The notes under the pieces are model-generated. The model did not search any database, was not told where the DNA came from, and worked only from the letters and a program-made list of their open reading frames with translations. A DNA stretch of 12,518 nt, taken from IMG/VR virus record IMGVR_UViG_2526164688_000041; one strand, given 5' to 3'. Within the stretch, counting starts at the first letter, position 1, and every line of letters begins with the position of its first letter. Origin of the DNA: a virus (Duplodnaviria > Heunggongvirae > Uroviricota > Caudoviricetes). A program made the position numbers and the translations under genes. This document shows, piece after piece, positions 2,445 to 3,589 of this stretch.

Positions 2445-3077
2445 TCATTGATTCACCTCCTGCCTGTCGTCCGGCATTCGCTCACTACAGCTTATCCAAC
2501 CATCCGGAGTTACCGGAGAATTGCCATTTACCAAATCAGCTCGAACATATAGCGTGTCATCATGGTGCTGATTGTGGCTGCACCACGTTAATTCGCTTAA
2601 CTCGCCATCTTCTGGCCATACTCCAGCTGTTTGCAGCCAGATATGGGCTGGCGCATCCTGGCAAGGTGTATTAACTGGAAACTTGTAAGTTTGGCTTACA
2701 GGTTGGCTACCCTGAAGCATGGCGGCGCGGCAGGCGTTCCAGCCATCTGCGTAACAATCTCTGTGTGTCTTGAAATATGTCACCGCCCTTGGTACATCGT
2801 TTACGTCTATTTCATCCGGCACAACCGGCGCAGGTGAGTCAGCATAAACAGGAATAACGTCCGGTTGCTCTTTATTGCTTTCATCCGTTAAAGCCCAGAA
2901 TAATTTCCCGGCCGGATGTTTGAAAATATAAGCAACTGGTTCTGCTTCCAGCGATGCCAGAGCAATTCGTGCCAGTTCTTCCGCTTCTTCTGCTGGCAGT
3001 ACAACGTTGCTACCAGGTCCGTATGTTTCGCGCCACTGCTTGATTGTCAGTAGTCGCTCTTTGGTAATAGTGATCAT
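2445..3077 (-). CDS. DUF551-type phage early protein (C-terminal ..PDGWISCSERMPDD.. motif)
   Basis: 210-aa ORF. Its ATG at 3077 overlaps the stop of the upstream gene (ATGA), indicating translational coupling. The C-terminal W-x-S-x-x-E-R-(L/M)-P-D pattern is typical of DUF551 domains seen in lambdoid early regions (from memory). Confidence 0.6.
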   Translation of the reverse strand: MITITKERLLTIKQWRETYGPGSNVVLPAEEAEELARIALASLEAEPVAYIFKHPAGKLFWALTDESNKEQPDVIPVYADSPAPVVPDEIDVNDVPRAVTYFKTHRDCYADGWNACRAAMLQGSQPVSQTYKFPVNTPCQDAPAHIWLQTAGVWPEDGELSELTWCSHNQHHDDTLYVRADLVNGNSPVTPDGWISCSERMPDDRQEVNQ

Positions 3078-3589
3078 GCCGCGTTTCCTTCTTTCTTATT
3101 AACAATTACACCGTCATATATTTCATTAAGGTGCCCTCTCAACTCCATGCGCCTTAATGCAGATAACATGTAATCGCATTCAACCTGCTTATTTCCAGTA
3201 AATGGCTTATCGTCAGGTTTACCCCAACAGCAATTACCCTTGGGCCACCCATGTACTTTCCGTACTCTTCCGTTAACAACGTGAAGTAATCCCCAGCCAG
3301 GTGGTAAATCCTCAATTGAAATAATTCCCGGCTCACTAATAAAGAATCGCCAGTCGCCCATTCCAAGAGACGGATTTTTACGAAAACGCTTTTTTCTATC
3401 TGCCAACAAGTCAGCACGAGAACACTTCGCCTCTATCAGGCATGATGCTGAATTTCTGAATCCCATAGCATCTGGCTGTTCTCCGGTACTGGTTACAGCT
3501 ATAAAGCGGTCATGAAAACAAACCTTGAACCCGTTGCGCTTAAGGAACTTGTACGCAATCTGACAGAGTTCGCGGTGTGTTAACGCCAT
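3074..3589 (-). CDS. PD-(D/E)xK-fold nuclease-like protein (possibly MmcB/VRR-NUC-like)
   Basis: Preferred start is ATG at 3589, with a GGAGA SD 5 nt upstream; the ORF-track start at 3610 is a TTG. The 171-aa protein carries ..GEQPD(40)AMGF...CLIE(53)AK(55)CS.., a canonical PD-x(12)-ExK motif with the expected spacing. Sub-family assignment is tentative. Confidence 0.6.
   Translation of the reverse strand: MALTHRELCQIAYKFLKRNGFKVCFHDRFIAVTSTGEQPDAMGFRNSASCLIEAKCSRADLLADRKKRFRKNPSLGMGDWRFFISEPGIISIEDLPPGWGLLHVVNGRVRKVHGWPKGNCCWGKPDDKPFTGNKQVECDYMLSALRRMELRGHLNEIYDGVIVNKKEGNAA

Follow-up and report, generated by a model that had tools for sequence, protein, structure and literature searches.

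The 12,518-nucleotide IMG/VR virus record IMGVR_UViG_2526164688_000041 (Caudoviricetes; the whole stretch is referred to below as the window) carries, between positions 2445 and 3589, two overlapping genes that encode a 171-amino-acid protein and a 210-amino-acid protein of the DUF551 type. On sequence and model grounds the 171-amino-acid protein appears to belong to a divergent phage clade that is homologous to the MmcB-like nucleases and lies outside Pfam family PF06319 as currently defined, and it is probably a catalytically competent, metal-dependent endonuclease. The reading that we favour on balance is that it is an autonomous, mosaic MmcB-like DNA endonuclease module whose pairing with the downstream gene is not obligate. 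A first-pass annotation, made from the sequence alone, had placed the two open reading frames (ORFs) and the ATGA by which the stop of the first overlaps the start of the second; both are as it gave them, on the minus strand. It had also proposed a nuclease for the 171-amino-acid protein, which is supported by conservation, predicted fold and sequence homology, and a fixed pairing with the DUF551 gene, which is not: the two genes do not form a conserved two-gene unit, nor do they as a pair make up a new system.

Conserved motif and predicted fold

The 171-amino-acid protein reads ...EQP39-D40-AMGFRNSASCLI-E53-A-K55, which is the PD-x(12)-ExK motif on which the nuclease proposal was based. The pattern alone is weak because it is frequent in shuffled versions of the same protein (D..(D/E)xK occurs in 62% of shuffles and PD..(D/E)xK in 6%), so that its significance has to come from conservation and fold. 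D40, E53 and K55 are invariant in 34 relatives having 59-99% identity to the window protein, a set with 45 invariant columns. Among 65 cluster representatives reaching down to 34% identity, D40 is kept in all 65 and E53 and K55 in 64 each; E37 is likewise kept in 64 of the 65, and position 27 is acidic in 64. Also conserved in this larger set are R58, D60, D64, K67, R70, G78, R81, W99-G-L, E137, R146 and R147.

An AlphaFold2 (AF2) model of the protein (pLDDT 80, pTM 0.76) has a core predicted to run in the order alpha-beta-beta-beta-alpha-beta, which is canonical for the PD-(D/E)xK (restriction-endonuclease-like) fold. In the model D40 comes before strand 2 (residues 41-45), and E53 and K55 are at the end of strand 3 (residues 48-54). 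When the model was used as a Foldseek query, PDB entry 3DNX (protein SPO1766) was retrieved with an E value of 1.7e-6 and there was no other match below 1e-3. Sequence comparison leads to the same entry. A broad family profile found 3DNX among the PDB sequences at E 9.2e-6 (a profile of close homologs gave E 0.24 at best, so the broader profile was needed), and an hhalign comparison of the family with SPO1766 gave Prob 97.5% and E 5.5e-12; the SPO1766 fragment used in this comparison is itself a member of PF06319 (MmcB-like), at E 3.8e-35. The first-pass annotation had made its nuclease call depend on conservation of the three residues and on a restriction-endonuclease-like fold prediction, both of which were found, and the nearest family, MmcB-like, is among the candidates that it had named.

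Relationship to MmcB-like nucleases

Homology to the MmcB-like family (PF06319, formerly DUF1052, COG5321) is significant at the profile level. The two groups share a size of about 150-170 amino acids and an extended signature, D...(I/V)ExK-x-SR-x-DF-xx-D ... R(F/Y)(F/Y) ... GL(L/I). In an alignment that includes homologs from lytic phages as well as SPO1766, residues D40, E53, K55, R58, D60, D64 and R81 are invariant, and all the way from SPO1766 to the homologs of Ackermannviridae the signature is unchanged in the form D...ExK-x-SR-x-DF-xx-D...R(F/Y)(F/Y)...GL. Homologs from other genera align with the window ORF over its full length.

The window clade differs from the MmcB-like proteins in several respects: it has a 7-residue insert with conserved K67, R70 and G76; it has a conserved C-terminal helix (E137, R146, R147); and its hosts are Enterobacterales and Vibrio, where it occurs in phages and prophages and not, like PF06319, which is recorded as mostly alpha-proteobacterial, in alpha-proteobacterial chromosomes (PMC3424549). 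Scores to the archaeal Hjc/AHJR-like families (PF01870, PF18743) are much weaker than to 3DNX, and the C-terminal half differs; for PF06319 itself, a link to archaeal Holliday-junction resolvases was drawn in earlier work (PMC1189080).

MmcB of Caulobacter crescentus is an SOS-induced PD-(D/E)XK endonuclease that cells need in order to resist mitomycin C and cisplatin, and a part in crosslink repair has been proposed for it (PMC9578287; bioRxiv 10.1101/2022.06.10.495655). Unlike C. crescentus mmcB, the window gene lies in a phage early operon, and an SOS (LexA) promoter was not seen, no search for LexA boxes having been made.

Distribution and annotation

The 171-amino-acid protein gives full-length profile matches to PHROG 631 and PHROG 9263 (E 3e-94 and 1.8e-122), both of which are labelled 'unknown function'; there is weaker similarity to PHROG 5429 ('DNA repair protein'). 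Profile phrog_631 is matched by the window protein, by the homologs of lytic phages and by those of nin regions, the E values for the window and lytic-phage proteins being 1e-64 to 1e-94. The family is large (3,345 clusters at 50% identity, E<=1e-3), and the nuclease gene is present in 931 of 5,426 complete Escherichia coli genomes (about 17%), on chromosomes and on P1/P7-type plasmids. The gene was already catalogued under PHROG 631; to this the analysis adds a predicted fold, a probable catalytic centre, and MmcB as the nearest characterised relative. The resemblance to SPO1766 of the homolog in Vibrio phage H20 was noted by one set of phage authors, and a Taipeivirus homolog is called 'DNA repair protein' by Pharokka-style annotation. 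The window protein has no match in NCBIfam. The Pfam matches of its relatives are sub-threshold, Hjc in 32 of the 65 and MmcB-like PF06319 in 21 of them (best E 6.5e-5).

The gene also has an annotation problem. RefSeq/PGAP recognises only its first 179 bp (window 3411-3589), calling them a 'frameshifted hypothetical protein' pseudogene; about 330 bp carry no annotation. The same label was found at loci L003, L004, L094, L095, L100 and L101. Is the gene really frameshifted? It is intact in L003, L004, L094 and L095, as judged by translation, and in L101, as judged by 100% nucleotide identity. On these grounds, and given the full-length alignment with other genera noted above, a pseudogene was rejected. 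In L100 nucleotide comparison gave 99.8% identity in one ungapped piece. The short family phrog_16308 (58 amino acids) matches residues 1-55 of the nuclease and may lie behind the 179-bp label.

Genomic context of the nuclease gene

The nuclease gene of temperate phages has as neighbours genes of replication, nin genes, genes of recombination (ERF, anti-RecBCD, RdgC) or DNA methylases; one E. coli prophage, for instance, has it in an operon with ERF and anti-RecBCD genes. In lytic phages it can adjoin replication genes. The Ackermannviridae homolog is immediately upstream of an annotated DNA primase in Kuttervirus S115 and Taipeivirus FKP10, and in a Vibrio member of this family the unannotated gene downstream is 42% identical to the Kuttervirus primase. 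The homolog in Vibrio Mardecavirus is placed between two helicase genes and a primase, with a 4-nt overlap (see Table 1 for coordinates). A single transferred nuclease-primase cassette is not supported as the origin of these cases: between the Ackermannviridae and Mardecavirus lineages the primases show hardly any similarity (E 0.067), which makes the arrangement either an ancient or a convergent one.

These neighbourhoods, taken with the relationship to MmcB, favour a structure- or lesion-directed endonuclease of phage DNA metabolism. A more specific proposal is that PHROG 631 is a widespread, so far unrecognised phage endonuclease which is coupled to replication or repair and operates together with the replisome, as the phage counterpart of MmcB, at stalled or damaged forks, crosslinks, or unusual DNA structures or modifications, all of which are possible roles. 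It fits the adjacency to barely related DnaG-type primases as well as the replication and nin neighbours in temperate phages; in so specific a form we nonetheless consider it unlikely. A weaker variant of it would have the modular protein encoded downstream tune or target the nuclease in Escherichia prophages.

A comparably doubtful proposal is that the protein is a conflict factor, serving in anti-defence, superinfection exclusion or host-DNA degradation. The gene is in an accessory-rich early operon where it adjoins Ea22-like genes, its presence is patchy and mosaic (the 17% of E. coli genomes and the P1/P7-type plasmids noted above), and some of its neighbourhoods contain anti-RecBCD genes and DNA methylases. 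Moreover, many PD-(D/E)xK proteins are defence effectors, and matches to Can2 and Shedu-like proteins were seen at low scores. Neither the nuclease nor the DUF551-type protein, however, matches any PADLOC-DB defence model at E<=0.1. Conservation across genera and phage families is also unusually high, unlike that of fast-evolving conflict genes, the primase/helicase adjacency is conserved in two lytic lineages, and DNA repair is the task of the closest relative that has been characterised (PMC9578287).

The association with a DUF551-type gene

Are the nuclease and the DUF551-type protein parts of one system? The first-pass annotation took their pairing to be fixed and, from the translational coupling, surmised a two-component unit. 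Such a unit would consist of the nuclease and, for example, a targeting or inhibitory subunit, with the stoichiometry set by the coupling. The ATGA overlap is real, and the same junction is found in 548 E. coli records, in phage P7 and in Shigella phage Ss-VASD; in Klebsiella electrica, too, the homolog (88% identity) is followed by a DUF551-type gene with a 4-nt overlap. Adjacency and order across the nuclease family nevertheless do not define a conserved two-gene operon. A DUF551-bearing or related modular gene flanks the nuclease gene in only about 20 of 80 IMG/VR loci, and in these it may be on either side (about 8 loci have it as the next gene downstream, about 4 as the second gene downstream and about 8 as the next gene upstream); in about 60 of the 80 it is absent within 3 kb. 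Homologs with 62-70% identity have other genes downstream: in Morganella prophages (62%) the nuclease gene lies between NinB and NinF/NinG, and in Serratia (about 70%) it comes after lambda-P-like replication genes and is followed by unrelated genes.

The same is seen within E. coli. The nuclease gene occurs in 961 records, and the 548 just mentioned have it joined to the N-terminal module of the partner; the 5' module of the partner is far commoner than the nuclease, occurring in 1,836 records against 987 for the nuclease. Downstream of nuclease genes 99.8-100% identical to that of the window, the partner can be replaced by a gene for a DUF550 protein, or by one for a 118-amino-acid hypothetical protein that is followed by a separate DUF551 gene. 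Nor is the overlap itself distinctive. Whatever gene follows the nuclease, a 4-nt overlap with it is found in about 34 of the 80 loci, and in the window the successive junctions of the leftward early operon measure -10, -37, -4, +1, -4, -4, +4 and +3 nt, with ATGA-type overlaps at two further junctions. Because junctions of the -4/+1 type run along the whole operon, the ATGA overlap is best seen as generic packing. Given also that the window partner retains little of DUF551 and that, by prediction, it is for the most part unstructured, as detailed below, a two-component unit seems to us quite improbable.

The name 'DUF551 gene', used in the first-pass annotation, holds in part. The 210-amino-acid protein passes the Pfam cut-off for DUF551 (PF04448; 23.8 bits against a cut-off of 22 bits), but the match is confined to residues 193-208, so that the window has only profile positions 1-16 of a complete domain of about 68 residues. 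A 263-amino-acid relative from E. coli O55:H7 DEC5D has the full domain; the first 198 residues of the two proteins are identical, and identity over the aligned length is 97%. This comparison indicates that the window allele is without about 52 DUF551 residues. Its C-terminus is ...DGWISCSERMPDDRQEVNQ and a stop, and the same end, together with the same downstream DNA, closes proteins of 163, 210 and 247 amino acids in different genomes. Carriers of the truncated end (window 2445-2501 (-)) include L094 1346-1837 and L095 1346-2089, and their middle modules differ. The exact 210-amino-acid protein occurs on 265 contigs. The shared end and this number of contigs point to a circulating deletion allele or a recombination joint and not to an assembly error; the conserved stretch DGWISCS(E/D)RMP may act as the recombination joint.

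DUF551-type proteins form a very large, mosaic family (at least 8,000 clusters), and sequence matching found no solved structure for them. In an AF2 model of a full-length relative (pLDDT 42) only the beta-rich DUF551 part is moderately confident, and this is the part deleted from the window allele. The N-terminal module of the window protein, its 'GWNACRAAML' module and the 16 domain residues that it retains are found also in YfdS of prophage CPS-53 and in the Ea22 V2 variant of Stx phages; as in CPS-53, homologs of yfdQ and yfdR are also present in the window (PMC4776307). The window protein differs from YfdS and Ea22 V2 in that the DUF551 core is deleted. For YfdS and Ea22 V2 the literature describes phenotypes only, and a mechanism is not reported (PMC4776307, PMC10834534).

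It is of note that a 27-amino-acid ORF, which begins at the stop of the truncated DUF551 gene, is conserved together with the truncated end in other E. coli prophages, where it is unannotated. It has no PHROG match and could be a small membrane peptide.

Predicted function

Two further proposals can be dealt with briefly. A restriction-like endonuclease partnered with a phage DNA methyltransferase is suggested by large C-5 cytosine methyltransferase genes shortly upstream of the homolog (L065 1022-2455, L069 70-1725 and L075 1166-3007), which end at its start or, in L075, overlap it, and by N6/N4 or Dam methylases within 3 kb in other loci. It is very improbable, since the window's operon has no methyltransferase gene and most loci have no adjacent methylase, and since the protein is small, highly conserved, MmcB/Hjc-like and without a recognisable specificity domain; orphan methylases are in any case common in phage early regions. 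Some PD-(D/E)xK-fold proteins are non-catalytic, but we give hardly any credence to an inactive DNA-binding or regulatory protein that keeps the nuclease fold, as the catalytic set E37, D40, E53 and K55 is near-perfectly conserved in 65 diverse members.

As regards the autonomous MmcB-like module, a number of observations weigh against it. The window protein has no Pfam match at E<=0.1, PF06319 included; the clade is known from sequences alone, every database name being 'hypothetical protein'; and confidence in the model is low at residues 120-133 and at the C-terminus. The primase adjacency belongs to lytic phages and not to the window, and the neighbours are of many kinds, with methylase, HNH, RNA ligase and terminase genes among them, so that a 'replication/repair' context is a tendency and not a rule. 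Finally, the DUF551-type neighbour is kept in roughly 57% of E. coli records (548/961). This would agree with a local functional link in close relatives.

That said, the autonomous module is the reading that we prefer, and it can be set out as follows. The nuclease would represent the PHROG 631 clade, a divergent sister of the MmcB-like branch (PF06319, PDB 3DNX) in the PD-(D/E)xK superfamily. Its gene would be one of the cistrons on the long transcript of the leftward early operon, and the protein would act on intermediates, of phage or host DNA, that arise in replication, recombination or repair. Cleavage would be directed by structure or lesion, as proposed for MmcB and the related Hjc-type resolvases, sequence-specific restriction being unlikely. 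The ATGA overlap would reflect compact, translationally coupled operon packing together with local recombination history.

The prophage and its other genes

The surrounding genes identify a lambdoid prophage of E. coli (Table 1). From the repressor, the leftward early operon runs yfdQ, yfdR, three Ea22-like genes, nuclease, truncated DUF551, DUF4222, xis and int; rightward, beyond the repressor, are cro/cII-like, Ash/Rha and DnaD-like replication genes. No sigma-70-like site was found on the minus strand from 8300 to 1900, consistent with a single long leftward transcript. The window has no tRNA gene.

Table 1. Coordinates of the nuclease gene, its surroundings in the window, and primase-linked homologs at other loci (the last row is numbered by locus)
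Feature	Position	Strand	Remarks
Nuclease gene (171 amino acids, MmcB-like PD-(D/E)xK, predicted; PHROG 631/9263; no Pfam match)	3074..3589	-	ATG start
AAGGAG ribosome-binding site of nuclease gene	3596..3601	-	8 nt 5' of ATG; within 3' end of Ea22-like gene
Codons of putative catalytic motif, P39-D40 ... E53-A-K55	3425..3475	-	D40 3470-3472, E53 3431-3433, K55 3425-3427
ATGA, overlap of nuclease stop and DUF551-gene start	3074..3077	-	Read from sequence
Mosaic 'DUF551 domain-containing' protein (210 amino acids), domain internally deleted (PHROG 60-type modular)	2445..3077	-	
DUF551 domain remnant (residues 193-208; profile positions 1-16 of 68), then ...QEVNQ and stop	2454..2501	-	
Small hydrophobic ORF (27 amino acids; MSWPDAIVTLGVVFAAAFVVFSICRWG), putative	2365..2448	-	ATG overlaps DUF551-gene stop (ATGA); AGGAGG upstream
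Ea22/Ead-like gene, upstream in same operon	3591..4319	-	Pfam PF13935, E 5.6e-30
Tyrosine integrase and excisionase	387-1961		
S24/HTH cI-like repressor	8234-8926		
Nuclease homolog abutting or overlapping a downstream primase	L092 2480-4161, L096 2480-4150, L097 2480-4232, L093 2363-4107		Ackermannviridae and Vibrio Mardecavirus

A single nucleotide separates the TGA of the Ea22-like gene from the ATG of the nuclease gene. In E. coli ARS-C301 (L004) an 'XF1762 family' gene (3370-3861) is inserted between the Ea22-like and nuclease genes; its Mom-like similarity is weak (PF25680, E 5e-5, below the cut-off). In the window the Ea22-like gene is the first of three consecutive overlapping genes at 3591-5604 (-) that look like a tandem array of paralogs. 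The second (4316-5029 (-)) is also Ead/Ea22-like and overlaps its neighbours; the third, an ORF of 203 amino acids (4993-5604 (-)), has no Pfam match and shares with its neighbour a C-terminal '...FLAE(V/I)RA...' motif and a 'QxRKGGNQ' motif.

Next to this array, at 5595-7083 (-), are homologs of yfdR (HD-domain, 5'-deoxynucleotidase-like) and yfdQ (DUF2303), as in the cryptic prophage CPS-53. Over-expression of the K-12 yfdQRST cluster inhibits replication initiation (PMC4776307). On the other strand, the ORF at 9825-10970 (+), with 381 amino acids, has an Ash-family domain (residues 117-211) and a Rha domain (residues 221-306); the start may have been over-called, which would account for the long N-terminal extension.

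At the beginning of the window, adjoining the integrase end of the prophage, an ORF of 112 amino acids (1-339 (+)) gives a weak match to phrog_7543 (E 1.2e-6; residues 2-89 of an 826-residue profile of 'unknown function') and looks, from this match, like an N-terminal fragment of a much longer protein. It may be the N-terminus of a fimbrial usher. The prophage may be inserted in or beside the gene to which this ORF belongs.

Implications

Since the clade is outside current Pfam and RefSeq labels the intact gene a pseudogene, the nuclease gene is easily missed in comparative studies. The analysis assigns a predicted fold and a probable catalytic centre to a 'hypothetical' gene of Stx-converting phages, of P7-type phage-plasmids and of Ackermannviridae that serve in phage therapy. 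Should the link to replication and repair prove real, the family would offer a simple means of finding out how damaged or branched DNA is dealt with by phages.

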